From NCBI GenBank assembly GCA_043799385.1, contig JAZDNV010000001.1, forward strand, positions 96,361-160,360: DNA of 64,000 nucleotides, in the 5' to 3' direction. Positions 45,603-62,762 of this stretch are shown here, in pieces; the first letter of the stretch is position 1; each line of letters begins with the position of its first letter. The notes below the pieces were generated by a model. It did no database searches. It was given only the letters and a program-made list of their open reading frames with translations, and was not told the origin of the DNA. Position numbers and translations under genes: made by a program. Origin of the DNA: Candidatus Aenigmatarchaeota archaeon (GTDB lineage Archaea; Aenigmatarchaeota; Aenigmatarchaeia; GW2011-AR5).

Positions 45603-45624
45603 CGAATCACTTTATTTAAAAGAA

Positions 45625-46659
45625 TTAAATTATTTTCTCTTTATATAAGAACTCTCTTATCTCGTTCTTTGTCATCGGTTTTGCATCCCTGGAGCAGTAT
45701 CCGCCTTTTACAGGTTTGCCGCTGTACTTCACATCCTTTTTGAAATGTTCAAGGTGCGGCGTATATATGTGCGGCAATATTATGAACATATCATCGGTTT
45801 CCAATGCATTACTGGCTTCTTCAGCAGTCATCAACTCTTCATGGATCTTCTCGCCGTTTCTCATTCCAACGGTTTCGACCTTTATTTTTTCGGGTTTGAA
45901 GCCGTATTTTGGCGCAAGCTCCTCTATCATCACTTCGGCTAAGTCAACGACCCTGAGAACAGGCATCTTAAGTATGAATATCTCACCCTCCTTCATCTCT
46001 GCACATGCTTTTAGTATCAGCTTAACAGCCTGATTGATAGACATAACAAATCGTGTCATCCCAGAATCTGTTATTGTCACGGGACCGCCCTTTGCAATCT
46101 GCTCCCTGAACAGCGGTATAACAGAACCGCTGGAGCCTAAGACGTTGCCGAAACGGACGCATGCGAACTTCGTTTCCCTCCACTTGTAATAATAAGTAGC
46201 CAGAACAAGCCTTTCAGACAGGAGCTTTGTTGCTCCCAAGGTGCTGACAGGATTAACAGCTTTGTCAGTGCTTATCGCCAAGAAGCGGTCAACGTCTTCT
46301 TCCAACGCCGCTTCGATGAGATTCTGCGTTCCTGCAACGTTTGTTTTGAACGCTTCGAATGGGTTGTATTCGCATAAAGGTATATGCTTCAGCGCTGCTG
46401 CATGAAATATTATGTCAATTCCCTTGACAGCCATTTTTAATCTGCTAATGTCGCGAACATCGCCCAGAAGGAACCGTAGGTTATGGTTATTCTTCAATTC
46501 CCTATAGACTTCAACCTGCTTGGCTTCGTTTCGGCTAAAAATCCTTATCTGTGCTGGCTTGTATTTCAAAAGTTCTTTGACTATTTCCAGGCCTATCGAG
46601 CCAGTACCGCCTGTCACGAGAATCTTTTTACCTTCAAAGAAATTTTTCATAGATATCAT
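45625..46659 (-). CDS. UDP-N-acetylglucosamine 4,6-dehydratase (PseB/FlaA1/CapD-like polysaccharide biosynthesis protein)
   Basis: KKILVTGGTGSIG, IRIFSRNEAKQ, HAAALKHIPLCEYNPFEAFKTNVAGT - canonical CapD/PseB/PglF signatures; 344 aa. Confidence 0.8.
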   Translation of the reverse strand: MISMKNFFEGKKILVTGGTGSIGLEIVKELLKYKPAQIRIFSRNEAKQVEVYRELKNNHNLRFLLGDVRDISRLKMAVKGIDIIFHAAALKHIPLCEYNPFEAFKTNVAGTQNLIEAALEEDVDRFLAISTDKAVNPVSTLGATKLLSERLVLATYYYKWRETKFACVRFGNVLGSSGSVIPLFREQIAKGGPVTITDSGMTRFVMSINQAVKLILKACAEMKEGEIFILKMPVLRVVDLAEVMIEELAPKYGFKPEKIKVETVGMRNGEKIHEELMTAEEASNALETDDMFIILPHIYTPHLEHFKKDVKYSGKPVKGGYCSRDAKPMTKNEIREFLYKEKII

Positions 46660-46674
46660 CTTTATGAAATCCTT

Positions 46675-47379
46675 TTAAACATTATTTTGTTTATTTTTCA
46701 AAACCGATTCTATGAATTCAAAATCCAATGCCGTATCTATATCCAGCGAGCTCGTGTGGTCCATTATGATAGCGCTGCAGTCTTTGGTTATAAGAACCCT
46801 CCTTTTCAGCAAAGCACTGGTCTTCGTTATATAAACTGCGCCGTTTGGCTGGTAAACTTTTGGCAGTTGCTGGCGCTCAAGGCAGAAATAATCTGTTTTC
46901 GATTTAACGAATGGATACAATCGTTTATTCTTGTATTCGACCAGCCAGAAAGGCGGGAATTCCGCTTCCTTAACGCTCATCAGCGACTCGGATTTAGTCT
47001 TTAGTATCGTTTTTATTCCAAGCGAGATGTGTTCTGCCTTTCTCAAAGGCGAGGTAGGCTGCAGCGTAACTACGTAATCTGGATAATACCCGTTTTTTTC
47101 CAGCTGTTTTACTGCATGTATTATCACAGGCGGCGTGTGCGTCGTATCTTTTGCCAGATGAGACGGTCGCATGAACGGAACTTCTGCGCCATAGCTTTTT
47201 GATACTTCTGCAATCTCCCTGCTGTCTGTAGTGACTATAACGCGGTCAAGCTCTTTGCACTTCAAAGCGCCTTCTATCGAATAGGCTATCAACGGTTTGC
47301 CGTTTAATGGTCTGATATTCTTGCCCGGTAGCCCTTTCGACCCGCCGCGTGCAAGAATCACGCCGAGAAATTTCTTCAT
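46675..47379 (-). CDS. CMP-sugar synthetase (acylneuraminate/pseudaminate cytidylyltransferase family)
   Basis: ILARGGSKGLPGKNIRPLNGKPLIAY matches the NeuA/PseF/LegF P-loop-like signature; 234 aa. Confidence 0.7.
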   Translation of the reverse strand: MKKFLGVILARGGSKGLPGKNIRPLNGKPLIAYSIEGALKCKELDRVIVTTDSREIAEVSKSYGAEVPFMRPSHLAKDTTHTPPVIIHAVKQLEKNGYYPDYVVTLQPTSPLRKAEHISLGIKTILKTKSESLMSVKEAEFPPFWLVEYKNKRLYPFVKSKTDYFCLERQQLPKVYQPNGAVYITKTSALLKRRVLITKDCSAIIMDHTSSLDIDTALDFEFIESVLKNKQNNV

Positions 47380-47417
47380 AATTATCGATTACGGGCTAAG
47401 CTTAAAAATCTATAGAA

Positions 47418-48431
47418 CTATAACCCTGGGAAAAGACTTGCTTGGTCTATTCTCACCATTGCATGCGGATTGGTATTAGAATAATTCTTCCCGGTTTTAG
47501 TGTCAAGGTCAGGTCTGTAGTCGAATGAAGCCAGATAACCTGCTGATTCTAAAAATCCCATTATATCAGTCATCTTTCTTTTATATCTTTTGCTCCTATG
47601 TTCAGTTTCGGTGAAGTAGCCGTGTGGATAAGCGTACATGGATACATCCTTACCAGTTATTGACTCTAGCTTTATTTTCGGGGCTGTTATTTCAGATTCA
47701 TACCACTTTTTATTAAGGGTTGTGAGCACGAAGTGGCTTGCCGAATGGCATCCTATTCTTACGCCATTTTCTGATAAATTCCTTACTTCACCCTCATTTG
47801 AAAACAACTGCCTTGCCATTATCTCTTCATCACTATTGGAAAACATGCTGTAAAATATAGAGTCTATTACGCCCTTCTTCAGTTCAGAAGGCAGGATAAA
47901 ATGAATGGCGTACTTGAGTGTCCTGGCATCGGGTCTTTCAAGCTGATAGTAGAATTCCGCTTCCTTTGCATGTTTTTCAAAGATGCCATTAAGATTGGGA
48001 TTCAAATCCAGCATTTTTTTCAGAGATGATTTTGCTTCCATCATTATTTTATCAGAACCGAACATGCCTATCAGTGCCTGTAGCTTGTATGTTGGCGGTA
48101 GTTTTCCCTCCATCATGTCGGTATTTATGAAAAATGTTGCTGGTATGCCATATTTTTGAAGTAGAGGGAGAAGCATATCATGTTCATATCCCTCATCAAA
48201 TGTTATCGACAAAGAATTATCATCTAGTTTTTCATTATCTCTAAGTTTTTTTGAGGCATGTTCCAAATCAATAATGTTATATTTTCTCTTTCTTGCAATC
48301 ATCATTTGCGCTTCAAATCTTCTGATATCGCAATGCAATCCCGCAAGCTCGAAACTATCATCACCTATTACGGCTCTTGGTGGTTCTCTACCTACATGGT
48401 GATATGTGATGACTAAAAGGTTCCCGGTCAT
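47418..48431 (-). CDS. polysaccharide deacetylase (CE4 family)
   Basis: TFDEGY (TFDDG-type) motif and HVG region; 337 aa. Confidence 0.6.
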   Translation of the reverse strand: MTGNLLVITYHHVGREPPRAVIGDDSFELAGLHCDIRRFEAQMMIARKRKYNIIDLEHASKKLRDNEKLDDNSLSITFDEGYEHDMLLPLLQKYGIPATFFINTDMMEGKLPPTYKLQALIGMFGSDKIMMEAKSSLKKMLDLNPNLNGIFEKHAKEAEFYYQLERPDARTLKYAIHFILPSELKKGVIDSIFYSMFSNSDEEIMARQLFSNEGEVRNLSENGVRIGCHSASHFVLTTLNKKWYESEITAPKIKLESITGKDVSMYAYPHGYFTETEHRSKRYKRKMTDIMGFLESAGYLASFDYRPDLDTKTGKNYSNTNPHAMVRIDQASLFPGL

Positions 48432-48464
48432 TTTCCGATATAAGAAGCAAAAATTTAAATATGG

Positions 48465-49487
48465 CTATTTCTTCATCGATGTTAGCCTGGGTATTACCCT
48501 TCTCTTCCTGTTTTTCAAAGGCAATCTTACCCCTTTTCCGGATTTGCTCGATTCGTGTATCGCCATCGCGATTTCGACTGCCTTCATTCCGTCCACTCCT
48601 GTGCAAGAGGGCTTCTCGCCTTTTTCAATGCAATCTATTATCTCTTCTACCGCAAGAACCAGCGGCGACCCTGCAATTACTTTTGGAAACTTTGCCGGGT
48701 ACAGCTTTTTTATTCCCACATCTTTTGGCAGCATAAGTCTGATGTCTTCAATCATCTCATTGCATTTTATCGCTCCGGCAGAGCCGAATACGCTGAAATA
48801 CCACAAAACATATTCGTTCCAGTCGCTATCGATGATGGCCACTGCGCCGTTTTTAAATTTTAATAAGGCATTACCGCCCGGGTCGTTCTCATTTACATTT
48901 ATAGTGCCATAAACAGAAACAAGGTCGCCTGCAAAAAACCGCAACAAATCAAAAAGGTGCGTTCCTGCGTTCATCAGGCCGATTGGGCAGAACCCCTGCA
49001 TCATCTTTAGTTCGCCGATGCTATTCTTTTCTATCATTTCCTTGATTTTTCTGTAGTGCGGATACCACCTTCGTGTATGGTCGACAGAAAGAACAACACC
49101 GTTCTTTTTGCAGGATTTTATCATTTTCTCGCATTCATCTATGCTGACTGCCATCGGTTTTTCGCAGAATATCGCTTTTACACCGGATTCGGCTGCTCTT
49201 TCTACAATGCTGCAATGCAGCGGTGCATGTGTACATACGCTGACAATATCTATTTTTTCGTTTTTCAGCATTTTTTCATAATCAGTATACGTGTTTCGTA
49301 TGTTCCATTTCTTTGAGAAGTAATCAAGTCGTGTTTTATCAACATCGCATGCTGCAACTAGCTTCACGTTTTTTACCGCTTTGTAGGCGCCTGCATGGCC
49401 GAACGGTTTTTTTGCCAACGGCTGTGAACCAAGCTCGTCCGCGATTCTACCACAACCGATTATTGCAGCGTTGTATGTCATTTTCAA
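48465..49487 (-). CDS. Gfo/Idh/MocA family NAD(P)-dependent sugar oxidoreductase
   Basis: N-terminal AAIIGCGRIADE Rossmann motif, EKP motif (FCEKPMA); 340 aa. Confidence 0.75.
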   Translation of the reverse strand: MKMTYNAAIIGCGRIADELGSQPLAKKPFGHAGAYKAVKNVKLVAACDVDKTRLDYFSKKWNIRNTYTDYEKMLKNEKIDIVSVCTHAPLHCSIVERAAESGVKAIFCEKPMAVSIDECEKMIKSCKKNGVVLSVDHTRRWYPHYRKIKEMIEKNSIGELKMMQGFCPIGLMNAGTHLFDLLRFFAGDLVSVYGTINVNENDPGGNALLKFKNGAVAIIDSDWNEYVLWYFSVFGSAGAIKCNEMIEDIRLMLPKDVGIKKLYPAKFPKVIAGSPLVLAVEEIIDCIEKGEKPSCTGVDGMKAVEIAMAIHESSKSGKGVRLPLKNRKRRVIPRLTSMKK

Positions 49488-49600
49488 AACCTCAGCTAAA
49501 TTTCATTATCTTGAGTTTTGAAAAGTCATTTACAGATGACATTTTCAAAACACCTCAACTCCATTGTTTTGAATTGGGATGCTCGTGATTGCAGAGAATC

Positions 49601-50806
49601 TCATCTGAATTCGCTCTTGTTTTCGATTATTTTCTTGATTGCGTTTACAACATCCTTCATGTCATCTATCGTCGCTGGCGGTCTTGCAACAGAGAACCAT
49701 ATAGCTTTCTTGCATAATTCTTCTGCAACCTTGCAATTGCATTTCTTGTAATCCAAGCTGCCTTTATAGAAGCTGCAGTTGAACGGACAACCCTGATTGC
49801 CGTAGACGATTTTTTCCCGGAACAATGGATTCTTGTATAGCGGATGTGGATAGCCAAAGGCGTTTGGTATGCCTTCGGCCTTCAGCGCTTCGGAAAAGTC
49901 TTTTATTGGTATACCAACCTTATTCTCATCGTATTCTATTGCATACAAATGGTAAACATGCTTTATGTCCTTTGAATCGTGCGGCGTCTTTACACCATTC
50001 ATGCGCAGATTTTTGGACAGAAATTTAGCAAGCTTTATCTTACCGTCATTAAGTTTGTTCAATTTCTTTAACTGGACAATGCCTATTGCTGCTTCCATCT
50101 CGGTCATACGGTAGTTCCAGCCAAGAATATTTGAAAGATACTCGCGCTTTTTCCCCTCGACAATGACTTCGCCGTGGTTTCGAATCATTCTACAACGTTC
50201 TGCTAACTGCAGGTCGTTGGTTATTATCATTCCACCCTCGCCTGTCGCCACGTCTTTTTTCTCCTGGAAGCTGAAGCAACCGATATCGCCAATAGTTCCT
50301 ACTAATCTGCCCTTATATTTCGCGCCTATCGCCTGGGCAGCGTCTTCGATGATATTTAGCTTGTGCCTTTTTGCAATTTCCATTATACCATCCATATCTG
50401 CCGGGTGGCCAAGAAGATGGACTGGTATTATCGCCTTTGTTCTAGGTGTTATCGCTTTGCGGATTTCGTTTGGGTCCAGGCAGTACGAATCCTTATCAAT
50501 ATCAGCAAAAATCGGTATGGCGTTGTGCATCAAAACGCTCGTTGCAGTAGACGTGAACGTATAAGGAGGAACAATGACCTCGTCTCCCGGGCCGATGCCA
50601 CACGCGGCTATTGCGGCGTGCAACGCTGCTGTTCCGGAATTGACAGCTATGGCGTATTTTGAATTGTGATACTCAGCGAATCGCTTTTCGAATTCCTTTA
50701 TCGTTTTGCCACCGAGAAAATTGGGTTTTAGCGTTGAGAACGTTGATAGTTCGCCGCTCTTCAATACATTCATAACTGCGTTTATCTCTTCCCTACTGAT
50801 TACCAA
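49601..50806 (-). CDS. DegT/DnrJ/EryC1/StrS family PLP-dependent sugar aminotransferase
   Basis: N-terminus EINAVMNVLKSGELS; full-length (401 aa) DegT-family aminotransferase architecture. Confidence 0.8.
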   Translation of the reverse strand: MVISREEINAVMNVLKSGELSTFSTLKPNFLGGKTIKEFEKRFAEYHNSKYAIAVNSGTAALHAAIAACGIGPGDEVIVPPYTFTSTATSVLMHNAIPIFADIDKDSYCLDPNEIRKAITPRTKAIIPVHLLGHPADMDGIMEIAKRHKLNIIEDAAQAIGAKYKGRLVGTIGDIGCFSFQEKKDVATGEGGMIITNDLQLAERCRMIRNHGEVIVEGKKREYLSNILGWNYRMTEMEAAIGIVQLKKLNKLNDGKIKLAKFLSKNLRMNGVKTPHDSKDIKHVYHLYAIEYDENKVGIPIKDFSEALKAEGIPNAFGYPHPLYKNPLFREKIVYGNQGCPFNCSFYKGSLDYKKCNCKVAEELCKKAIWFSVARPPATIDDMKDVVNAIKKIIENKSEFR

Positions 50807-50865
50807 CCATTTTGGCCATTGACTTTTTCTTATCGGTTTTCCGCCATGAATCGCTAAGTTCGTAA

Positions 50866-52308
50866 CTACACACCCTTTGATAATTTATTTTGCTGCTTTA
50901 TATTTAATAGTGTTTTTATCACATGCATGCTCAAATAACCGAACCGCGGTAATCCAACGTCCTTGCATTTCTTCAATGCCATAAAAGGCAGGAATAGCGC
51001 GTTATTTTTCATATAGTTGATAAACATCCTTCTCTGGGCTTCTTCCTTTAACCGTTTCAGTTCATCGTCCGAGAAATCAGTCATGTTCAGGTATATCCTC
51101 TCGCCGAAGCCTGTGCCATCGCCAAATCTTGATAAATATTCATCATCATCTTTAACCAATCCTTTTCTCTTGACCTCCGCCCAGACAGGCGTTCCTGGGT
51201 AAGGGGTGAAATAAAAGAAGTATTCAAGTTCATTAACCTTTTTCATATATCTTACCGTATCCTCTATCGATTCCTTTGTTTCACCTGGTATGCCTATCAT
51301 TATCGAGACGCGTGGATGAACGCCGGCCTTCTTTGCATTCATCACACCTTCATACTGCTGCTCCAGAGTGACGCCTTTTCTTATTGTATTGAGATTCTTT
51401 TGATTAGCGCTCTCTATGCCGTATAGCAATGCAACGCAGCCGGATTTCTTCATGAGTTTCAAAAGCTCGAGGTCAGAGACATTCACGCGGCCAGCTGCAT
51501 CCCATGTTATGTTCATCTTTTTCTCTATCAGCAGGTTGCAGAATTTAACGACACGGTCGCGGTTGACTACGAATGTTTCATCACTGAAACTGAATCTTGA
51601 AACTTTGTATTTCTCTTTCAGGACTTCCATCTCCTCGATTATATTCTCCGGGCTTCGCAATCGCGATTGATTGTGAAAAGCGTCGTTGCAGTATATGCAT
51701 TTGTACGGGCATCCACGACCAGTCAATAGGTTCATGCTGTTGAAATCCCCGTAGCCGTATATATGGTATTTCAGGTATATCTCTATCGGAAATATGTCCC
51801 AGGCAGGGAACGGCACATCATCCAGGTTTTGTATCAGTGGTCGCGGCGCAGTTTTTACTATTTTTCTACCAGTTCTGAAGTAGATGCCTCTTACTTTATT
51901 GAGGTTGCCATTCTTTTCCAGGGTCTTTGCCAGATCGACTGCAGTAAGCTCGCCTTCTCCAACGACGACTACGTCAACCACTGTTTTTTGAAGAAGCAGC
52001 TCAGGAACAATAGTCGCCAACGGCCCGCCAATCACGATTTTCTTTTTTGGGTGCAACTCTTTTATCTTCCCGACAAGCTTCTTTATGTAGTTGTACTGGG
52101 TAACGATCCCAGTCAAGCCGATGACGTCAAAATCATAATCTTTGAGTCTTTTTATCGCATCTTCTATTGTGTATTTGTTCGCATGCATATCTAACGCTTG
52201 CACGTTATGGCCGGCATCTATCAGGTATCTGGCTACATAACCGAGACCCAACGGAAATGACGTTGGCTCGCGGCCAATCACTCTGGGATGAATTAATAGT
52301 ATCTTCAT
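50866..52308 (-). CDS. cobalamin-binding radical SAM enzyme - paralog C
   Basis: B12-binding domain (VIGLTGIV...IVIGGPLATI), radical SAM CPYKCIYCN; 480 aa. Confidence 0.75.
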   Translation of the reverse strand: MKILLIHPRVIGREPTSFPLGLGYVARYLIDAGHNVQALDMHANKYTIEDAIKRLKDYDFDVIGLTGIVTQYNYIKKLVGKIKELHPKKKIVIGGPLATIVPELLLQKTVVDVVVVGEGELTAVDLAKTLEKNGNLNKVRGIYFRTGRKIVKTAPRPLIQNLDDVPFPAWDIFPIEIYLKYHIYGYGDFNSMNLLTGRGCPYKCIYCNDAFHNQSRLRSPENIIEEMEVLKEKYKVSRFSFSDETFVVNRDRVVKFCNLLIEKKMNITWDAAGRVNVSDLELLKLMKKSGCVALLYGIESANQKNLNTIRKGVTLEQQYEGVMNAKKAGVHPRVSIMIGIPGETKESIEDTVRYMKKVNELEYFFYFTPYPGTPVWAEVKRKGLVKDDDEYLSRFGDGTGFGERIYLNMTDFSDDELKRLKEEAQRRMFINYMKNNALFLPFMALKKCKDVGLPRFGYLSMHVIKTLLNIKQQNKLSKGV

Positions 52309-52338
52309 GCTCTCACTAATAAGACAGAAAATTTAAAT

Positions 52339-53805
52339 TCATTTCTTGCCGCGCAATCGGTTTATTATTTTTATTTCCCTCTTATCGAAGACTTTGAAAA
52401 CGAACAGCAGCGCTGCGTAAACCAGAAATCCTAACGCGAAGACGGCTATTTTTTCAACCAGTACCTGTGGATTCAACAGCCACATGACCAGGCCAGAGAC
52501 TACGGCCGCGGTCAGCACTTTATGCACGGCAAGGTAACGATAATCGATTGATACATGCTTTTTGCAGTAAAAATACATCATGAGGAACATGATGAAATAG
52601 CTAACGGTTGTTGCGATAGCTGCGCCGTACATCCCAAACCTTGATATCAATAGTATATTCAATGCTATGTTTATTGCAGCGCTGGTTATGTATATGGCCG
52701 GTATAATCTTTGTTCTGCCCCTGAGCAGGATGTTCTGGTAAAACAAGAATACCATCGCTGCGAATAGAGGAAATGGTATTAGAAACGGCATTATCGCAGC
52801 CGCATCAGCGTACGCAGGACCGGATATCATGCCGACAACCTGATAACCAAGGCTCAGCATGAACGCCATGAACGGCAGTATTGTGACGATGTTGTATTTC
52901 AATGCAATATTAAAAAGCAGGTTATGGTCGCCTTTTCTGTTCCACGCCTCAGCTATGTACGGCTGGAGAACATTCGATACGGTTGCACCGAGAACGTATA
53001 TGAGGTTGATGAGCGAATAGCCAAGCGAGAAGATGCCGACTGTTGCCGGATTTGTAAAATAGTTCAATACGTATCTGTTTCCCATCTCTATGATTAAGCT
53101 GCCGAGAAAAATAAATATTACAGGCATGCTGAAAATCAACGCAGGGACTACTACACTCATTTCAATTCTCCATGATTTTAGCACAGAGAACACATCCCTT
53201 GATTTAAGCGAGTAGAGGACGATCGCAACAACGCTAGAGAATAGCCATATCACAACCACACGCAGGATTGTCAATTCGCCAAATCCCACGACAGCTGATA
53301 AAATCGCCACAAGTATTATCTGCTGGATAAAAAGTATTATGCTGTTTAATTCTATCTTCTTGTTTGCCACAAAGTACGCTGAATACAATCGTGTGAGCGT
53401 CGAGATAAAAATTATAACGAACAAAAACTGCAACCCGAGGCTGAAGTTTTCTATTTTCATTATAGCCGACAGGAAACTCTGCGCAGGCGGTGTGATAAAT
53501 ATCACAGCAACTGCCAATAGGAATATCAGTTCAAAAAACATTAACGAAAAGAACGTGCTCATTTTCTTTTGATGCGGCAATCCTGGCAGCTTCGTTATTA
53601 TGAACTGCGATAAACCCAACTCAAGCAATACTACAAGCGAGCTTACGGTGACCGCGAAGAGCGAGTATACACCATAGTCGTTGACCGTAAGGTTTCTAGT
53701 CAGCAGGAATATCAGCAGCGGGTTGATTATTATTGTAAGTATCAGACTAGCATAAGAAAAACTAATCTGCCTTATCATCCTGATGTATTCGCTCATATCA
53801 ATCAA
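52339..53805 (-). CDS. Wzx-type polysaccharide/oligosaccharide flippase (MOP superfamily)
   Basis: 488 aa, about 12-14 TM helices with typical MOP/PST layout. Confidence 0.65.
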   Translation of the reverse strand: MIDMSEYIRMIRQISFSYASLILTIIINPLLIFLLTRNLTVNDYGVYSLFAVTVSSLVVLLELGLSQFIITKLPGLPHQKKMSTFFSLMFFELIFLLAVAVIFITPPAQSFLSAIMKIENFSLGLQFLFVIIFISTLTRLYSAYFVANKKIELNSIILFIQQIILVAILSAVVGFGELTILRVVVIWLFSSVVAIVLYSLKSRDVFSVLKSWRIEMSVVVPALIFSMPVIFIFLGSLIIEMGNRYVLNYFTNPATVGIFSLGYSLINLIYVLGATVSNVLQPYIAEAWNRKGDHNLLFNIALKYNIVTILPFMAFMLSLGYQVVGMISGPAYADAAAIMPFLIPFPLFAAMVFLFYQNILLRGRTKIIPAIYITSAAINIALNILLISRFGMYGAAIATTVSYFIMFLMMYFYCKKHVSIDYRYLAVHKVLTAAVVSGLVMWLLNPQVLVEKIAVFALGFLVYAALLFVFKVFDKREIKIINRLRGKK

Positions 53806-55292
53806 GCTATCCTATAGATTTTAATTTTTGTATTTTTATTCTCGTAAACTAGGGTACCGTCTAACGGTACGTCCTTGTCAAACTTGCTGATTACCATGTC
53901 GCTGTTTTCCGGATAAAAGACATATGATATGTTATAGTCAATAAAGTCCTCTGCAGTCGTTTTGTTAATGAACTCGAAAAAGACTATGCTATACGCATAT
54001 CTATCGAATTTATACGAGTTGCACTGGCTGTTCGGTGTTAGGAATACTGCGTCTTTTTCCGTATTGCTCTTTATCCAGTTGAAATCATCCTCGTATTTAT
54101 TCCACATGTCATTGGCGACAAAGGCTTTACCGAACTCGCCGGAAACGAAGATTATCGCAGATATCGCTATGAGTGCAACTACAGTCCTTTTATTTACGAA
54201 TCTTTCAATTCCGAGTGCCCAGTATACAGCAAAAAATGTCATGGCAGGCAGTATGTACCTGATTATGAAGAGGTTGATTGTGAATGAAATAAGGAGATTG
54301 AATATGAGAAATGAAATGAGGAGTATGTTTATCACATCAAAACCGAAGCTTCTCTTAACATTTCTCAACCCGACAAGGAAAAAGAAGAAAAATACCGCTG
54401 TCGCTGCTAGCCAGATTAAAGCCATGTATGGATTCAGGATTGTCAGATTATCAATATTTCCGTTTGGAACCCCGAATAAAGATAGGTAGAACGATGTCGA
54501 AAGGCTGGAAATATCAGCATTCAATTGGCCGAAGCCTAACTCAGATGTGGAGAAATCTTGGTAACCGCCAAATAGATTGTTGAAGTACGGCCAGATGGGA
54601 TTGCCAAGATACATCCAGTCTCTCAAATACCAGGGCGATGCTATTGCAAATGCGACGATAATGAATATTGCCGATTTCTTTAGGAAATCTTTCCTTGTTT
54701 TTGTGAATATGATATAGAGGATGACCGGCAGCATGAAGAATGCGCTGACCTTTGCCAGAAGCGCCAATCCGGCTAATGCAGATGATAAAATCAGGCGATC
54801 TTCAAGCATGTAATAGATGCTTGCCAAAACAAAAAACGCAAGCGTTGTATCGACATATCCAATAGAGCTTTCATACATATGCCCTGGTATGAACGCCAGG
54901 AATACGGTGCTGTAGAATGCAGTTTTTGAGTTGAACAATTTTTTAACCAGCAGGAATGAATACAACAAAAACAAGCTGCCGAAAATAGGAGAGATGAGTT
55001 TTAGCGATATATCGCTAATCAGCCAATTGAAAGACAGGTAGCTTGCTGCTGTGAACAAGTGAAACAACGGCGGTGCCCAGAAGACGCTTCTTCCCAAAGG
55101 CTCGAACAATGGTATTGATAAATCTCTTCCAATGAATCGCGATGCAGAAAGGTGCCAGCACGCATCGCCGCTCACAGCAGAGATAACAGCCAAGGCGAAT
55201 CTTATCACTATTGCCGCAAGTATTATCATCAGGGCGTATCTCGTATATTTATCTTTCACAGATTTTCTAATATCAAATCTCATTGAAATCAC
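53802..55292 (-). CDS. GT-C membrane glycosyltransferase (PMT/ArnT-like, GT39/GT83-like)
   Basis: 496 aa polytopic; first extracytoplasmic loop with acidic/His motif (SGDACWHLSASRF) reminiscent of PMT/ArnT DE-loop. Confidence 0.5.
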   Translation of the reverse strand: MISMRFDIRKSVKDKYTRYALMIILAAIVIRFALAVISAVSGDACWHLSASRFIGRDLSIPLFEPLGRSVFWAPPLFHLFTAASYLSFNWLISDISLKLISPIFGSLFLLYSFLLVKKLFNSKTAFYSTVFLAFIPGHMYESSIGYVDTTLAFFVLASIYYMLEDRLILSSALAGLALLAKVSAFFMLPVILYIIFTKTRKDFLKKSAIFIIVAFAIASPWYLRDWMYLGNPIWPYFNNLFGGYQDFSTSELGFGQLNADISSLSTSFYLSLFGVPNGNIDNLTILNPYMALIWLAATAVFFFFFLVGLRNVKRSFGFDVINILLISFLIFNLLISFTINLFIIRYILPAMTFFAVYWALGIERFVNKRTVVALIAISAIIFVSGEFGKAFVANDMWNKYEDDFNWIKSNTEKDAVFLTPNSQCNSYKFDRYAYSIVFFEFINKTTAEDFIDYNISYVFYPENSDMVISKFDKDVPLDGTLVYENKNTKIKIYRIA

Positions 55293-55831
55293 TTGTCCGC
55301 ATATATTATACAGTTCATGAAAAGTTCAAAATATTTTGCACGTATTTTATTTCTGTCAAATCCAGCCTCTGCGAGAATATCCATTATTTCAGAGCGGTAG
55401 TACGTTTTTTTATGCTCTTCTGCACCTTTTTTTGAGACAAGTTGCAAACTACCTAGAAATTGTATGATGAAATTTGCGATAGGCGTTGGCGTCGTGATTA
55501 TCAATCGGCCGCCGCTTCTCAAGACCCTGCGGCATTCCTTCATTACATCCACTATGGTGTCTTCTTCTATATGCTCAAAGACTGCAAGCATTGTTATGCA
55601 GTCAAAATAGTCTTGTTTGAACGGCAACCCCTTTCTTATGTCCCCTTTCATACACCTTGAATCTCTTGGCAGGTCAATGTCGATGCCATACTTGTCTTTG
55701 AAATCGACATGCTTCAGCAAATAACCGGAGCCGCAGCCCAAATCTAATATCCTTCCCCTGGATTCTGGCAGATATTTGTTCGTCTGACTTATTCTCATTG
55801 ATCTAAGAAACGGTTCTAACAACTCGCTCAT
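55289..55831 (-). CDS. class I SAM-dependent methyltransferase
   Basis: ILDLGCGSGYLL motif I; 180 aa. Confidence 0.65.
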   Translation of the reverse strand: MSELLEPFLRSMRISQTNKYLPESRGRILDLGCGSGYLLKHVDFKDKYGIDIDLPRDSRCMKGDIRKGLPFKQDYFDCITMLAVFEHIEEDTIVDVMKECRRVLRSGGRLIITTPTPIANFIIQFLGSLQLVSKKGAEEHKKTYYRSEIMDILAEAGFDRNKIRAKYFELFMNCIIYADK

Positions 55832-55833
55832 AG

Positions 55834-56955
55834 TTATTCAAATTTTACTCTAAATAACTTCACTTCCCCTCCCCAGTTATTTACGAACTCAAAGTTTTCG
55901 AGCCCCTGGCCGTTAAAGAAGTACATTTTAGTGAACAACGAATTCTCGAGTTCAGGCGGTATGTAAATCAGCAGTTGCCTGTCAGGCGTCAGCCATAACA
56001 GGCCCTTGATTTCAGAGTCAGGGTAAGTCTTTACAGCTCCCATGCCATCCTTTGTGACATAGAATATTTTTTCAACTGACAGGAATTGGCTGCCCTGCTG
56101 AAGATAAGGCTTTATTGTCCCATTTATTTCATATAAGACGAATGACTGCTGTTCTGCCATCGGATACGTGTAAGCTATCGCGTTCTGTGCAACTATAGGC
56201 TTTGCTTGGCTCAGGCCAAGCATGAGATAATAGTATTTCTTACCCTTTTCGGCAGGTTCCCATGTTGTGAAGTACGACCACCATACGCTCTTGCTTATTA
56301 GGTCAGATGAAGCTATGTAGTAAAGCTCATCACAACCCAGTTTCTTATACTCTTTCAAAATATCCAGCGCCAACGTCTCGTTTCCCGTGAGCAATGTTGC
56401 GGCTATGTCCTGTATTCGTGCTGTCGTGACAGTGCCGTTCGAAAACATCATAATACGGTTTATGCCGTTGTCGTATTTCTTTATCACCATACCCGATTCG
56501 TCGCTGCTGGTGTTTCTTATCAGCAGAGCGTTCTGCGAAGCGCCATCGAAAACGACCGCTCGCTGCGCGATTCCTGTTATGAAATGCCCTGGGTCCCAGT
56601 ACGTCGCAATAACTGCGCAATCCTTTGTGTTATTTCTGATCCAGTTCAATGCGTTGAACCAGTTGTCGGATAAAACGGTGCCCTGTGATTTTGCTACGTA
56701 CAACCCCGGTGAAAAGTAAAATGAGTATGTAATGGAAAATATCATGAACATCAATAAAGTAAGGTATATCTCCCTCTTTTCGATGAATTTTGTCGCGTAC
56801 AATGCCCATGAAATAATTGCAATCACGAACATTACTGCAAACCACTCAAGAATTAAGACGGATGCGTTAAGCACAAAGATGAGTATCAATGACAGCAGCG
56901 ACAACCCGACCAATGAAAGTATTCTTTTATCCATATCAATCCTCAAGTTTTTCAT
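55834..56955 (-). CDS. aglB: AglB/STT3 oligosaccharyltransferase C-terminal portion (last TM helices + WWDYG-like motif + periplasmic domain)
   Basis: ATYWDPGHFITGIAQRAVVFDGASQN aligns with the archaeal STT3 signature WWDYG[YH][WF]I...GQRA..DGG; three N-terminal TM helices then soluble domain; 373 aa. Confidence 0.55.
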   Translation of the reverse strand: MKNLRIDMDKRILSLVGLSLLSLILIFVLNASVLILEWFAVMFVIAIISWALYATKFIEKREIYLTLLMFMIFSITYSFYFSPGLYVAKSQGTVLSDNWFNALNWIRNNTKDCAVIATYWDPGHFITGIAQRAVVFDGASQNALLIRNTSSDESGMVIKKYDNGINRIMMFSNGTVTTARIQDIAATLLTGNETLALDILKEYKKLGCDELYYIASSDLISKSVWWSYFTTWEPAEKGKKYYYLMLGLSQAKPIVAQNAIAYTYPMAEQQSFVLYEINGTIKPYLQQGSQFLSVEKIFYVTKDGMGAVKTYPDSEIKGLLWLTPDRQLLIYIPPELENSLFTKMYFFNGQGLENFEFVNNWGGEVKLFRVKFE

Positions 56956-58132
56956 TTTCAGTAATAACCCTCAGCAGTTTTGATAGCAATATTGCTGAAC
57001 CAATCGCCATTGGCGCTGAGAACAGAATCGAAAATCTTACCGCGATTATGGTCGCCAGCAACGGGCCTATGAACCATATCGAAAGTAGAATAATCGTGTC
57101 CAAGTGCTGTTTTTTCCTGTAGTAAGAGTAGAACAAATATATCAGACAATAGAGCATGAGGAAGAATGGTGATATAATAATCGCTATCCCGCCGATGGCG
57201 CTCGTTCTTTGTATTATATTTCTTATGTCGCCGGATTCCTGCATCTCTGCGACCGAAACGTAAACGTTAGGGAATTCGCCGGCTTCGCTTTTGATGTCAC
57301 CGAACGTGAACGGTCCCTGCACGGTTGAAACGATGTGACTCACCCCCAATATAGGTACGGTCATGCAGAAATACGTGATAGCCATTATGACGAACATCAA
57401 TAAAATACATTTTGAATTGTGAATGAATTCTTTCCTTGACTGCAAATAATTCGTTATTAACTTCAGAACTAAGAAGCCTGTTATCAGCCATACTACGTAC
57501 CACCAACCTGCCCATGAATATGCCCAGATCCCCAGGAATATTCCGGTAAGAACAGAATACATAACTGCTTTTTTATCAAGAACTTTTTTCAGGTCTATGT
57601 ATTTGTATGTAATCAGGAATAACGCGATTACGATTAATGGCAGTAAAAGTGTGAAAGCATCCGAGTCTGGATCGCCGCCCAGCGTTCGGCTCATTACGGC
57701 AACGTCAAAGACGATGAAGAAAGCGGCTATGATGCCTGCTCGCTTGTCGTAGAGAATCTTTCCGATAAAATACATTGGTATTGCCATCAGCGAAGCCAGC
57801 AATGCCGGAAGATATATCAGGTACTGCCACAGCTCAAGGTTAGGCATGAAAGATTTGAACAACATGTAGCCCCATGCGCCAAGGTATTGGTAGAAGAACG
57901 GATAATTGGTTGGAACTGGATGGCCGTATGGTGCCTGGTCAAGATAGTCGTAATTTGGCATCAAGCCGTTGTTGTCGATTATCATGTTCATCTGCTTCAT
58001 AAACGCGTATGAATCTATGTTGCGCAGGTACGGCCATCGGTAATCTATCGTCCTCACGTACATGCCCAGGAATATTATGAGCACTACAATGATTATTGCC
58101 CAATACCTTACCAAGAAATTTTTCAAATCCAC
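56936..58132 (-). CDS. aglB: AglB/STT3 oligosaccharyltransferase N-terminal transmembrane portion
   Basis: 398 aa, about 10 TM helices; first external loop YVRTIDYRWPYLRNIDSYAFMKQ resembles the STT3 EL1 acidic DxD/DSYYH region; ends in a different frame 20 nt inside the start of 55834..56955. Confidence 0.5.
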   Translation of the reverse strand: MDLKNFLVRYWAIIIVVLIIFLGMYVRTIDYRWPYLRNIDSYAFMKQMNMIIDNNGLMPNYDYLDQAPYGHPVPTNYPFFYQYLGAWGYMLFKSFMPNLELWQYLIYLPALLASLMAIPMYFIGKILYDKRAGIIAAFFIVFDVAVMSRTLGGDPDSDAFTLLLPLIVIALFLITYKYIDLKKVLDKKAVMYSVLTGIFLGIWAYSWAGWWYVVWLITGFLVLKLITNYLQSRKEFIHNSKCILLMFVIMAITYFCMTVPILGVSHIVSTVQGPFTFGDIKSEAGEFPNVYVSVAEMQESGDIRNIIQRTSAIGGIAIIISPFFLMLYCLIYLFYSYYRKKQHLDTIILLSIWFIGPLLATIIAVRFSILFSAPMAIGSAILLSKLLRVITENEKLED

Positions 58133-58136
58133 AGCA

Positions 58137-59288
58137 TCACTTCGGATTCAGATTGAATGTATTTATGTAAAGGTCTTCATTGCCATGCCTTACTGTAAAT
58201 AGAATGAACAAAACTATAAAAACTGTATAAATCAGATTTATGTGCATTTTGTACTTACCTTCACTAAGCTTTGCTACCATCATGAATGCAGGAAACAGGA
58301 CTAAAACGAATCTTGGTATGCCGAACAGCAGAGACGTAGATATGGGAAGAATAAGACTCAGCACAGAATAAATACCGTACTCTTTTTTGATGTGCCTTAA
58401 TGACAGCAAGGACAGTGCGATGAATGCTGCAGCTACGGCTATGTCAAAAAAGTAATAGATTGTCCCGCCAAAAGTCTTTGATGTTATTCCCATGTAGAAC
58501 GTGTTTATGAATGCTACCCATGGCAATGCAAGCTCCCGTGCAAACCCCTGCTGGGCCTTGAACATCATGAACGCATCGCCTATGGAAAAATAATGGTATG
58601 CCATTATCGTAAGTATGCCTAAAGGTATCAGTAATATGAAAAGAACGTTCGGACTTATCCTGAATTTCTTCTCGCGAAGGTAGATGTACAATATCGGTAA
58701 AAGCAGGATTACGCCTTGCGATCTCGTCAGTGATGCAAAAAACCCGGCGATTCCCGAATGCATGTATTTCCCCTCTTGTGCAAACCAGAAGCAGGCCAAT
58801 GACAAGAACAGAAACAACGACTCTGTGTACGCTGCCGTGAAGAAATAGGCAGTCGGGAATAGCAAAAGATAGAAAACGGTCTTATACGCCATTTTACCAT
58901 TCATCTCCTTCTTGACTAGCAGATAAAGCATTGTCACCGCAAGGAATGAGAATATGTTTGATATGAGAAAGGCGGCAATATCATAACCAAGAAAACCGAT
59001 TGCCTTTATCATCAGCGGATAGAGAGGATACCAAGCGTAGTTGCCCATACCTTCATTGAAGTTGGGATTATAGCCGTTTTTTGCTATATCCAGGTACGCT
59101 CCTGCGTCTGACTGCATCCACGGATTAAGGAACAGACTATCACTGCGGATCTGACGGTGCGTGAGTTCGATTGGTATAAGCTGGCTGAAAATACCGACAA
59201 CAAGCAAAACAATCTTGATGAGCAGAAAGATTGCCACCACTCTTTTATAGAACCCATCTTTCCACAATGTTCTGAATTTATTCATCAT
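58137..59288 (-). CDS. PIG-V/Gpi18-like (GT76-like, DUF2029-type) membrane mannosyltransferase
   Basis: Polytopic 383 aa; motif MQSDAGAYLDIAKNGY resembles the conserved WDAEHYLxIAxxGY loop of GPI mannosyltransferase 2-type GT-C enzymes. Confidence 0.45.
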   Translation of the reverse strand: MMNKFRTLWKDGFYKRVVAIFLLIKIVLLVVGIFSQLIPIELTHRQIRSDSLFLNPWMQSDAGAYLDIAKNGYNPNFNEGMGNYAWYPLYPLMIKAIGFLGYDIAAFLISNIFSFLAVTMLYLLVKKEMNGKMAYKTVFYLLLFPTAYFFTAAYTESLFLFLSLACFWFAQEGKYMHSGIAGFFASLTRSQGVILLLPILYIYLREKKFRISPNVLFILLIPLGILTIMAYHYFSIGDAFMMFKAQQGFARELALPWVAFINTFYMGITSKTFGGTIYYFFDIAVAAAFIALSLLSLRHIKKEYGIYSVLSLILPISTSLLFGIPRFVLVLFPAFMMVAKLSEGKYKMHINLIYTVFIVLFILFTVRHGNEDLYINTFNLNPK

Positions 59289-59341
59289 AACTAAATCTAT
59301 TTTTTTGTTAAGCTTTTATTCATTGTGTTTAAAATGATTCT

Positions 59342-59995
59342 ATGAAGTACAGGGAGCAATGGGATGACCATTGGAAAAAGCTTGACAAGTCATTCTTTGG
59401 AAGACTAACGGAATTCCATAGAAAGATTATAATATCCAAGGCAGTCAGCTACTACATGGACAGGTATTTTCCAGACAAAGGCACATTCGTTGAGTGCGGT
59501 TCTGGAACTTCGCAGACATCCATAAAAATAAACAAAAGAAAAAGAAGACTAATTGCATTGGACATATCGTCTCAGGCGCTCAACGAAGCCAGAAACGTCA
59601 AAAAGATAGACCACTTCATCAAGGCTGATATATTTCGCCTGCCGTTCAAAGACGATTGCATAGACGGCATATGGAACCTTGGCGTTATGGAACACTTTAG
59701 CAAATCTGAAATAAGCCATGTACTCAGCGAGTTCTACCGAGTAATGAAAGACGGTTCGCATATAATCCTTTTCTGGCCGCCCATGCACGGCTCGTCGCAG
59801 ATAGCGCTGAGGCCGGTTGAAAAATTCTTCAACATGCTCAAAAAGGAAAAGTTTCAGTTCTTTCCAGGCGAGATAAGCAAACCGAAATCAAGGAGCCATG
59901 CAAAGAGCTTGTTGGGTTCAAAGTTCAAGGTGGTTGACATACACTTTGACCGCAGAGACATGTTCACTCATTATGTTGTTGTTTGCAGAAAATAG
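59342..59995 (+). CDS. class I SAM-dependent methyltransferase
   Basis: FVECGSGTSQTS motif I, LGVMEHF motif; 217 aa. Confidence 0.6.
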   Translation: MKYREQWDDHWKKLDKSFFGRLTEFHRKIIISKAVSYYMDRYFPDKGTFVECGSGTSQTSIKINKRKRRLIALDISSQALNEARNVKKIDHFIKADIFRLPFKDDCIDGIWNLGVMEHFSKSEISHVLSEFYRVMKDGSHIILFWPPMHGSSQIALRPVEKFFNMLKKEKFQFFPGEISKPKSRSHAKSLLGSKFKVVDIHFDRRDMFTHYVVVCRK

Positions 59996-60691
59996 CTAGA
60001 ATTTCTTTCTTATGCTGTGAACGTACAGGTTCATGACATGCCTTATATATCTTGAAATTTCTTTTGGTGTCATTATCTTGCTTTTGCCTGCTTTTCTGTT
60101 TATGAAGATGAAAGGGACTTCTATGAAATTTTTGTACTTGCCCTTGACCATTATTTCCAGGCATATCTTGCAACTATCAGGATTGATGCTCACGCCATCT
60201 ATAACGCTTTTTTTAACAAGGAAGAAACCTGACATCGGATCTTTTATTTTTGCTATAGGCTTTACCAGAAGTATCGCTGATTTTGATATCAATCTCCTGA
60301 GCTTTGTCCACTTCTCATCCGCTCCTCCGCCTGGTATATACCTGCTGGCTACAACAACATCATAATCCTTTATCTTTTCAATCATTCTTCTCAACGTTTC
60401 CGGTGGGTGGCTCAGGTCCGCGTCCATCACGCCGACTATATCGGTTTCTGCTGCCTTGAAGCCATCGAGAATCGCCGAGCCAAGACCGGATTTGTTCTTG
60501 CGGTGAAGCACGTTTACACGTCTGCATGTCTTCTTTAATTTTTCTGCAATTTCACCAGTTCCGTCCGGAGAATTGTCATCTACTACCAATATTCTGATGG
60601 CTTTTATCTTCAGCAAATCTTTGACAAGTATTGGAAGGTTCTTGCTCTCATTGTACGTTGGCACGATTATCGTTATCATTTCAATCAACAA
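59996..60691 (-). CDS. GT2 glycosyltransferase, dolichyl-phosphate hexose synthase-like
   Basis: [33 protein letters not shown] (DxD/SH motif) typical of DPM1/AglD-like synthases; 231 aa. Confidence 0.75.
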
Positions 60692-61376
60692 ACCTGTATT
60701 TTATTATTGCATACAACGCCTTCACGCCGTCCTTCCAGTTTATCTTTTTTCCCTCGCTGAAATTTCTAGGATTAAAGGATATCGGAACCTCGTATATCCT
60801 GTACCCGCGTTTAAGAATCTTTGCTGTAATCTCAGGCTCTATTTCAAATCTGTTGGATTTGAGCGTTATATTCTTTACAACGTCTTTTTTGAAGACCTTG
60901 TAGCACGTCTCCATGTCTGTTATGTTTTTTCCGTACACAAGATTCATCGCCAAGTTCAAAAGCTTATTTCCCATGTAGTGCGAAGGGATACTTGTTTTAC
61001 CCTTTCCAAAGAGTTTCAGCTTCTTGCCAACCAGCCTTGAGCCATAGACCACGTCTTTGCCGTTCATTATAGGATCGAGCAATTTCTTGTAGTCTTGCGG
61101 GTCGTATTCAAGGTCGGCATCCTGTATCAATATTACATCGCCCGTGGCTTTTGCCAGGCCCGTGCGCACGGCACGGCCCTTGCCCATGTTTTTTTCATGG
61201 TAGAACACCTTACACCCTTTCAGCTTTTTCAGGACGTTCCTAGTTCCGTCCGTGGAGAAATCATCGACGATTATAATCTCTTTACCAATCTTCAGCTCGA
61301 CCCTTTTTATCCTATCCACTATTTCCGCTATGGTTCTGTATTCGTTGTAGACCGGTATGATAATTGATAATTTCAT
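60681..61376 (-). CDS. GT2 glycosyltransferase, dolichyl-phosphate hexose synthase-like (paralog)
   Basis: [36 protein letters not shown]; 231 aa. Confidence 0.75.
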
Positions 61377-61379
61377 AAC

Positions 61380-62762
61380 TTATGCCAACCATCTGTATAT
61401 CCTTAAGAGCACGAATTTTAAATTCTCAAGGTTCTTTATCTCGGAGAGCATTTTCAGCATTATGTGCGGCCGCAGATAGAAGCGCAGGAACGCCTTTCTC
61501 CTCAGGTTCTTTAATTGCCTTTCACTTATTCCGTCAGGCGTCCACACTATCTTGTCAAGCGAGAATTTATCCCAGTCAAGTTTTTTTATCTTGCCCTGCC
61601 TGACAAGGTCGTTGTACGCTTCTGTCCCTGGGAACGGCTTATACGCAGAAAAGCCCGCTCTTTTTAGCGGAAGTTTGCAGGCAAAATCTATTGTTGCATT
61701 GATGTCAGCGATTGTCTCTCCGGGGTAGCCGAGAATGAAGAATCCAATTATCTCCAATCCTTGGTCGTGAATCATGTTGGCCTTTTTTTCTATGGTTTCG
61801 GACATAAGATTTTTTTTCATAAGTTTCCTTATCCTGTCGACTCCGGACTCGACGCCAACTGAAATGGAATAAAGGCCTGATTTCTTCATCAGTTTCAGCA
61901 GTTTCGGGTCCAGCGTGTCTATTCTCACCCCGTTCGGGCAGGCCCAGCTTACGCCAAGATTTTTCTTGATTAACTTTTTGCAGAACTCTTCGACGAATCT
62001 TCTGTTCATGGTGAAATTGTCGTCTTCTATATGAATCTCGCGAATGCCGTAATTCTTGACAAGGAACTCTATCTGGCTTATCGCGTAATCGACGCTGTGG
62101 CTGCGTATCTTCCTGCCGCTTATCACAGAGCCGCCGCAGTAGGTGCACTGAAACGGACAGCCGCGCGTTATGATTAGCGGCGCGGTAGGGTATTGCTTGC
62201 AGAACGCGCCGTGCGGAGCGAGCGGGTAGCTCTTGAGGTCATATAAATCCCAACTAGGATCGAAGTCGTCGAGATTTTCTGGAAAGACCCTATCTGTCTT
62301 ATGTATCTTATTTCCAGCGCGATATGCAATTCCAGGCACGCTCTTTATACGCTTCTCCATCGAATTTGCAATCATGCTGACGAATTTAGGAAAACTAATT
62401 TCAGCTTCTCCGATAAAAACATAATCAACATCTTTCAAGTAGTTCAGCGTTCCAGTTGGATCCAACGTTGCCTGAGGACCGCCAACGACAACGATTGCAT
62501 TCGGCATCAATTCTTTTACGATTCTGGAGAATTCTTTTACAGTGTTCAGGTCAACTGTGTAACACTGCAGACCGATTATATCGAATCTCTTGCCAACAAG
62601 ATAATCCTTGAACTTATCCGCCTTCCATCCATTCTTTATGCAGTCCAGTATTGTAACGTTATGCTCCCTCACCGTGCTTGAGATATAACCAAGGCCCAGT
62701 GGTGGCTGGACCTCATTCGTTATCTGGAAAGGCTTTACAAGCAGTATGTTTAGCTTTTTCAT
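61380..62762 (-). CDS. cobalamin-binding radical SAM enzyme - paralog D
   Basis: B12-binding domain (IIGLQCYT...VVVGGPQATL), radical SAM CPFQCTYCGG; 460 aa. Confidence 0.75.
   Translation of the reverse strand: MKKLNILLVKPFQITNEVQPPLGLGYISSTVREHNVTILDCIKNGWKADKFKDYLVGKRFDIIGLQCYTVDLNTVKEFSRIVKELMPNAIVVVGGPQATLDPTGTLNYLKDVDYVFIGEAEISFPKFVSMIANSMEKRIKSVPGIAYRAGNKIHKTDRVFPENLDDFDPSWDLYDLKSYPLAPHGAFCKQYPTAPLIITRGCPFQCTYCGGSVISGRKIRSHSVDYAISQIEFLVKNYGIREIHIEDDNFTMNRRFVEEFCKKLIKKNLGVSWACPNGVRIDTLDPKLLKLMKKSGLYSISVGVESGVDRIRKLMKKNLMSETIEKKANMIHDQGLEIIGFFILGYPGETIADINATIDFACKLPLKRAGFSAYKPFPGTEAYNDLVRQGKIKKLDWDKFSLDKIVWTPDGISERQLKNLRRKAFLRFYLRPHIMLKMLSEIKNLENLKFVLLRIYRWLA

Follow-up and report, generated by a model that had tools for sequence, protein, structure and literature searches.

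Split aglB genes in Candidatus Aenigmatarchaeota point to a two-subunit archaeal oligosaccharyltransferase

Results

Two adjacent open reading frames carry the two halves of AglB

The oligosaccharyltransferase (OST) AglB, a member of the AglB/STT3/PglB family, is encoded in a Candidatus Aenigmatarchaeota archaeon by two adjacent open reading frames (ORFs), and this division is the subject of the present study. The window, i.e., the whole stretch of DNA analysed here, comprises 64,000 nucleotides of assembly GCA_043799385.1 (contig JAZDNV010000001.1, positions 96,361 to 160,360), and coordinates below are those of the window. The two ORFs, with their assigned transmembrane (TM) helices, are:

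56936..58132, minus strand: aglB-N, membrane half of AglB (398 aa), assigned TM1-TM12; GTG start at 58132, TGA stop at 56938-56936
55834..56955, minus strand: aglB-C, longest ORF 373 aa with an ATG start (366 aa from the ATG at 56934); extra TM hairpin, assigned TM13 and predicted external acceptor-binding domain

As initially annotated, the two lie in different frames and total 771 aa. Neither half has internal stops, and each ORF has hundreds of homologues at E < 1e-100; therefore, neither is a chance ORF. In their longest forms the two share 56936-56955 (20 nt), with the aglB-C frame +1 relative to that of aglB-N and the longest aglB-C starting at an upstream ATG at position 56955. On the minus strand, the junction reads ...ACT GAA AAT GAA AAA CTT GAG GAT TGA t ATG GAT AAA AGA....

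The membrane half carries the STT3-type catalytic motifs

The AglB/STT3 identity first proposed for the split pair is supported by a Pfam match of the N-half and by PDB sequence and fold matches. The aglB-N product matched the Pfam STT3 family (PF02516) with an E value of 4e-30 over profile positions 4-374 of 405, and aligned with residues 6-272 of Archaeoglobus fulgidus AglB-L (3waj). A second, weak stretch of this alignment (4.7 bits, 3waj residues 385-446) holds the conserved arginine (AVRFSILF versus QNRFAYYF). The best PDB matches of the AlphaFold2 model (pLDDT 85.6, pTM 0.87) in Foldseek were 3wak/7e9s/5gmy/3waj, followed by yeast and human STT3 and PglB, at probability 1.00 and TM-scores of 0.58-0.70 normalised to the query. 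The model is thus that of an STT3-type polytopic membrane domain with a predicted GT-C fold. The motifs of aglB-N, with invariance scored across 29 homologues of each half, are:

58013..58015, minus strand: codon of D40 in YLRNIDSY, predicted first catalytic Asp, external loop 1 (EL1); invariant, aligned with the Asp of GGNDPW in 3waj
57659..57673, minus strand: D154-P-D156-S-D158 of GGDPDSD, DxD-type metal-binding motif; D154, P155, D156 and D158 invariant
57245..57256, minus strand: S293-V-A-E296, putative TIXE-type motif, flexible external loop 5 (EL5); V292, S293, V294 and E296 invariant, A295 nearly so
57035..57037, minus strand: codon of R366 in AVRFSILF, conserved Arg before the last N-half helix; R366 and F367 invariant
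56939..56971, minus strand: putative cytoplasmic C-terminal tail of the N-half, RVITENEKLED, former TM12-TM13 loop; tail consensus conserved

D156 and D158 line up with the D-H-H of GFNDHH in 3waj. The SVAE motif sits at the end of the sole low-confidence segment of the model (281-295), as expected for EL5, and E296 is probably the TIXE/SVSE-type glutamate, an assignment made from motif and position without structural superposition. R366 would be the conserved arginine between TM11 and TM12, its alignment to the NRF of 3waj being the weak one mentioned above. Among homologues, the tail has the consensus R(M/L)xxGEDKxx(E/G)D.

A simple hydropathy scan called too few TM helices; hence, the AlphaFold2 secondary structure was used in its place. 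The last three long helices of the model span residues 322-340, 344-363 and 368-392, and the helix following the conserved arginine is, going by the published AglB/PglB topology, presumably TM12. By our reading, which follows the alignment to A. fulgidus AglB and in which TM2-TM5 are not settled helix by helix from AlphaFold2, the N-half probably has 12 TM helices rather than the about 10 counted earlier.

The C-half carries TM13 and the external domain

Pfam gave no match for the C-half, so its identity was drawn from PDB sequence, profile and fold searches. The ORF contains ATYWDPGHFITGIAQRAVVFDGAS, and HMMER aligned it with TM13 and the WWDYG region of solved STT3 chains; residues 51-146 matched the last TM helix and the WWDYG region of human STT3A (468-552). 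In agreement with the three TM helices noted at the outset, the AlphaFold2 model (pLDDT 91.5) begins with long helices at 2-29, 36-54 and 60-90, after which comes an alpha/beta domain. The top 31 PDB matches in Foldseek were all PglB, archaeal AglB C-terminal domains or STT3, and the external-domain fold matches solved AglB domains. The features of aglB-C are:

56794..56952, minus strand: two extra TM helices (residues 2-29 and 36-54, AlphaFold2), a lineage-variable hairpin at the N-terminus of the C-half
56686..56778, minus strand: helix 60-90, predicted TM13 equivalent (AlphaFold2 helix; the stretch aligns with STT3A 465-554)
56587..56601, minus strand: Y119-W-D-P-G123, putative counterpart of the WWDYG sequon-binding motif in this family; invariant as ATYWDPGHFI
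56290..56304, minus strand: D218-L-I-S-K222 (SSDLISKSVWW), candidate DK-type motif; D218, L219, K222, S223, W225 and W226 invariant

The WWDYG signature described earlier in this ORF holds as to its place, since YWDPG aligns column for column with the WWDYG of solved STT3 chains and Y119-W-D-P-G-H124 is invariant, but not to the letter, its first Trp being Tyr. The D218...K222 region gave no sequence alignment to solved AglB domains and is thus a candidate for the DK motif. Judged from their motifs, the two ORFs jointly appear to hold every catalytic element of an AglB.

The break lies in the putative TM12-TM13 loop

Since the N-half ends after TM12 and helix 60-90 of the C-half is the TM13 equivalent, we assign the break to the cytoplasmic loop between TM12 and TM13, with the TM12 label taken from the C-terminal part of the 3waj alignment. 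The short C-halves of relatives consist of a basic segment, one TM helix and the domain (e.g., L019, MRVEKRKIALVTFLAVIIVY...). This layout fits an N-in/C-out TM13 and supports the proposed position of the break.

Before the external domain, C-halves carry one (L019), three (window) or five (L001, L016) TM helices; L019 and other one-helix forms lack the extra hairpin, which L001 and L016 have twice. The RF-to-WDPG distance is 97 residues with one TM helix, 144 with three and 197-211 with five. Besides, two homologues of the N-half (P0143 and P0154) have an insertion of ~50 aa in the cytoplasmic TM10-TM11 loop (alignment columns 486-536) that contains two hydrophobic helices; this is another site of TM-hairpin addition.

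The split is conserved among relatives

All of the best 120 N-half homologues (48-73% identity, 358-519 aa) and all of the best 120 C-half homologues (45-67% identity, 296-488 aa) are stand-alone proteins. Named homologues of both halves come nearly all from metagenome-assembled genomes (MAGs) of Candidatus Aenigmatarchaeota, and the AglB proteins of the window are identical to NCBI entries from one such MAG. When 1.84 billion cluster representatives were searched with a profile, 1800 matched; the top ~22 (>257 bits) were stand-alone C-halves or fragments, and full-length AglBs of 700-880 aa turned up only below 257 bits. Contig-truncated fragments of full-length proteins, such as P0296 (296 aa, clustered with the 721-aa P0391), were excluded from the split count.

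A locus scan with one genome per GTDB species yielded 63 loci. The N-half stands immediately upstream of the C-half on the same strand in all 59 loci that have upstream DNA; the four loci without an N-half begin within 170 nt of a contig end. As to the comparison with orthologous loci that the initial annotation had called for, 57 of the 59 are split and two (L044 and L049) are single ORFs. These species-level genomes were produced by many projects with various assemblers, and L020 stems from a single cell. The split is therefore a real and old feature, neither a sequencing error nor a dying gene. A search for a second AglB copy within the window found none.

Start signals and variety of the junctions

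Frame relations were counted over 58 split junctions besides that of the window, L003 and L021 being one gene in two assemblies. Relative to the N-half, the C-half is in frame +1 in 34, +2 in 14 and 0 in 10. Stop codons and spacings (to the ATG nearest the stop) were counted over 59 junctions, the window included. N-halves end in TGA (26), TAA (24) or TAG (9). From stop to ATG, the spacing is 0 nt in 5 junctions (TAAATG, in frame), +1 in 12, +2 in 3, +4 in 4, +10 in 5, -4 (ATGA) in 7, -11 or -14 in 6, 33-172 nt in 8 and ~650 nt in 3; the short spacings run from -14 to +13 nt. A stop followed by one nucleotide and an ATG, as in the window, is the commonest type (12/59). In the three loci with the ~650-nt gap, a complete class-I SAM-methyltransferase gene (223-224 aa) stands between the AglB halves, at L019 3314-3988, L025 2111-2782 and L060 3318-3989.

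The last codons of the N-half (GAG GAT or GGT GAT) form GAGG or GGTGAT 3-12 nt before the ATG of the C-half. Counting GAGG, GGTGAT or GGAGG at that distance, a Shine-Dalgarno-like motif is found at 46 of the 59 junctions versus 11% of 16-mers drawn at random from these loci. In the window, the start signals are:

56941..56944, minus strand: GAGG, Shine-Dalgarno-like motif in the last two N-half codons (GAG GAT), 6 nt before the ATG at 56934
56932..56934, minus strand: ATG from which aglB-C probably starts (Met8 in the longest ORF), one nucleotide past the TGA at 56938-56936

The ATG at 56934 is preferred as the start because the N-termini of homologues align to this Met and not to the upstream one, because of the GAGG spacing and because L027 has the same ATG pair, at -20 and +1. 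Thus, the 20-nt overlap reported initially holds for the longest ORFs but is most likely an artefact of taking them, with a 1-nt spacer in place of a real overlap and a likely C-half product of 366 aa. Neither Rfam (gathering threshold) nor ARAGORN found any RNA gene, tRNA and rRNA included, in the whole 64-kb window; hence, there is no RNA element of this kind at the junction.

Across the junctions, the tail of the N-half has a mean charge of -0.9 (negative in 42/59) and the head of the C-half one of +0.95 (positive in 37/59). We do not claim this complementarity as a docking device, as the trend is weak and may stem from a Shine-Dalgarno constraint (GAG GAT encodes Glu-Asp) and the positive-inside rule.

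Both halves are under purifying selection

The ratio of nonsynonymous to synonymous substitution rates (dN/dS, Nei-Gojobori), calculated for nine unsaturated locus pairs, lay between 0.03 and 0.14 in both halves, apart from a single N-half value of 0.32. For the pair L019/L025, which carries the inserted gene, the values were 0.065 and 0.033. Such low values indicate that neither half is decaying.

A neighbour-joining tree of concatenated N- and C-halves together with full-length relatives (675 columns, 100 bootstraps) supported the main split clade at 99-100%. The fused forms are nested within it (L049 at 81-89%, L044 at 84-87%) and resemble their split sisters. L044 retains the two extra TM helices, with 140 residues from RF to WDPG versus 141-142 in L035 and L026, and L049 has the one-TM form, matching L051. 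Given this nesting and likeness, L044 and L049 are best read as probable secondary re-fusions. The sister group mixes fused proteins (P0261, 826 aa; P0391, 721 aa) with split loci (L061/L063). The deeper branching is poorly supported and is compatible either with a single split in the ancestor followed by several re-fusions or with several splits of independent origin. Under both histories, the TM12-TM13 loop is a seam at which the chain can be cut and joined again.

In a distant Aenigmarchaeota genome, L068 (1596-3936, GCA_016195275.1) is likewise divided in the TM12-TM13 loop (8-nt overlap) and carries the canonical motif WWDQG; its placement in the tree has a support of 20-52%. Two further loci are labelled Thermoplasmata (L050, QMSS01000037.1) and Pacearchaeota (L064, JAWAMY010000001.1). 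They nest in the tree with the Aenigmatarchaeota loci L052 and L058 and are near-identical to them; they are probably mislabelled or misbinned.

Discussion

We consider it very probable that the locus is a genuine two-gene AglB, i.e., a heterodimeric archaeal N-oligosaccharyltransferase. Of the explanations listed initially, the genuinely split two-subunit OST is the one backed by the split in 57 of 59 loci, by the purifying selection on both halves and by the start signals, together with the predicted folds of the two halves and their intact motifs. From these observations we infer that the two chains physically assemble and are active as an enzyme. Both genes would be co-transcribed in one glycosylation operon. 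The C-half would be translated from its own ATG at 56934 by means of the GAGG in the last two N-half codons, which would be classic translational coupling. The aglB-N product would supply the membrane domain up to TM12 with all the residues that bind the metal and the lipid-linked glycan (D40, D154/D156/D158, E296 and R366), and the aglB-C product would bring TM13, the additional hairpin before it and the external domain, in which YWDPG is the predicted sequon-binding motif. The active site of AglB and PglB, as seen in solved structures, is formed where the membrane domain meets the external domain. The two polypeptides would assemble non-covalently, side by side in the membrane, and so rebuild it.

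Several points weigh against this reading. The association of the two chains is itself deduced. The exact junction of the window is known from one assembly, P0001 and P0121 having one member and one contig each. The YWDPG motif has Tyr for the first Trp of WWDYG. The assignment of TM1-TM12 draws on the weak 3waj stretch, on motif position and on the published topology. Finally, an unsplit second aglB may possibly exist elsewhere in the MAG.

Could the two products act apart, the N-half as a GT-C transferase of another kind and the C-half as a surface protein of its own, with no joint OST? The link between them is predicted from genomic evidence, and the C-half has gained extra TM helices. Against such independence, adjacency and order are strict in 59/59 loci, motifs that are meaningful only together are co-conserved, re-fusion has occurred repeatedly inside the split clade and the genes stand in a glycosylation operon. 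We therefore regard it as improbable.

Programmed recoding, by a +1 frameshift at GAT-TGA or by stop readthrough, would yield a single full-length AglB. A GAGG resembling a Shine-Dalgarno motif does precede the in-frame TGA by a few nucleotides, the downstream frame is +1, and +1 is also the commonest frame relation (34/58). The layout of GAGG, TGA and +1 frame resembles the bacterial RF2 frameshift site. As a general mechanism, however, the programmed frameshift considered initially is at odds with the junctions of relatives, which show every frame relation and every stop codon, spacers anywhere between -14 and +172 nt and even an inserted gene, so that no single recoding event is workable family-wide. 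The conserved slippery codon, in-frame stop and fixed frame relation of an RF2-type +1 frameshift do not occur together here; there is no conserved slippery codon, and the GAT codon would presumably not re-pair in the +1 frame. Furthermore, in several loci (e.g., L006, L019, L026 and L058), a stop codon shortly before the ATG closes the C frame. Recoding is thus very unlikely.

An assembly or sequencing indel, i.e., a one-base error that changed the frame of one continuous aglB, would give just the +1 difference seen, and the exact sequence comes from a single assembly; yet the same break in the same loop recurs in 57/59 species-level genomes of different projects and assemblers, including the single-cell L020, a start codon and a Shine-Dalgarno motif stand exactly at the junction, and in-frame stop-ATG junctions, ATGA overlaps, long spacers and an intervening gene are not products of a 1-nt indel, so that the breadth and variety of the split exclude this explanation almost completely. 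Recent pseudogenisation, with aglB frameshifted and decaying, would suit DPANN archaea, in which genome reduction and gene loss are common (PMC6349945), but is scarcely credible for halves that both show dN/dS of 0.03-0.14, have no internal stops and keep their catalytic residues invariant across lineages only 45-70% identical in an old and diverse split clade; selection and motif conservation exclude it.

A. fulgidus AglB-L (3waj, 3wak, 5gmy, 7e9s) and STT3/PglB share with the locus the GT-C membrane half, the OST-type external domain, the EL1 Asp, the DxD-type motif, the TIXE-type Glu, the conserved Arg, a putative WWDYG-type motif and a glycan-biosynthesis island. The locus differs from them in its two genes broken in the TM12-TM13 loop, in YWDPG for WWDYG and in the 0, 2 or 4 extra TM helices before TM13 in the C-half. 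Members of the AglB/STT3/PglB family (CAZy GT66; 13 TM helices plus external domain) are single polypeptides that attach a lipid-linked glycan to the Asn of N-x-S/T sequons in proteins. Here, a separate stop and start interrupt the chain, so the locus is filed as a variant of the family. Its separate ORFs, their own start signals, purifying selection and fused relatives (L044, L049, P0261, P0391) are those of a functional split gene.

Splitting of a glycosyltransferase into membrane-anchor and catalytic subunits has been described for Alg13/Alg14 and EpsE/EpsF (PMC4973528, PMC8993221). As in the present case, split and fused forms occur across lineages, re-fusion is repeated and the genes are adjacent in prokaryotes. 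However, these enzymes have an unrelated GT-B, MurG-like fold and catalyse another reaction, and, unlike in Alg13/Alg14, the AglB break interrupts a polytopic membrane domain, leaving two parts that are each integral to the membrane. Split genes are also known from the same superphylum, DPANN, such as reverse gyrase, AlaRS and DNA polymerase of Nanoarchaeum equitans, and Dph1/2 (PMC6349945). There, too, a normally single gene occurs as two functional pieces with fused versions in relatives. Those are mostly information-processing enzymes and in N. equitans often lie far apart, whereas the AglB halves are adjacent, apparently translationally coupled and form a membrane glycosyltransferase, which is thereby added to the DPANN list. 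The eukaryotic OST complex (6c26, 6s7o) likewise depends for its activity on non-covalent assembly of membrane proteins around STT3. In contrast, its catalytic STT3 is one chain and the partners are accessory; in Aenigmatarchaeota, the catalytic subunit itself is divided.

To our knowledge, every STT3/AglB/PglB enzyme solved or characterised so far consists of one chain. A full-text search of the literature library found no report of a split AglB, STT3 or PglB and none listing AglB among split genes, although prior notice is possible. A bolder proposal, which we put forward as a tentative possibility, is that Aenigmatarchaeota carry out N-glycosylation by an obligate two-chain OST, the first divided STT3-family enzyme, in which the TM12-TM13 seam has been recut and rejoined and the hairpins of the C-subunit serve as a docking module. 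If this were true, the acceptor-binding module would be a separately exchangeable part, and the hairpins would compensate for the lost covalent link. The conserved natural split itself suggests that the covalent TM12-TM13 link is dispensable, and it offers a natural two-piece system for assembly studies, acceptor-module swaps and split-OST design. NCBI names the C-half 'hypothetical protein', and the N-half is without the WWDXG motif. With no Pfam match for the one and no WWDXG in the other, surveys that rely on full-length AglB or on this motif could misjudge the N-glycosylation capacity of the phylum.

Genomic context

The aglB pair belongs to a tightly packed minus-strand operon inside a glycan-biosynthesis island (43752-62762), a setting typical of archaeal aglB. 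Its members include:

45625-46659, minus strand: PseB-like dehydratase
46675-47379, minus strand: cytidylyltransferase
49601-50806, minus strand: DegT aminotransferase
50866-52308 and 61380-62762: two B12-binding radical-SAM enzymes
52339-53805, minus strand: flippase-like protein
53802-55292, minus strand: PMT_2 GT-C protein
58137-59288, minus strand: PIG-V-like GT-C protein
59996-60691 and 60681-61376, minus strand: two GT2 enzymes

Nucleotide-sugar enzymes, a polysaccharide deacetylase, a GFO-type oxidoreductase and methyltransferases are also found in the island. The two B12-binding radical-SAM enzymes, unusual in agl clusters, may be glycan or sugar methylases.

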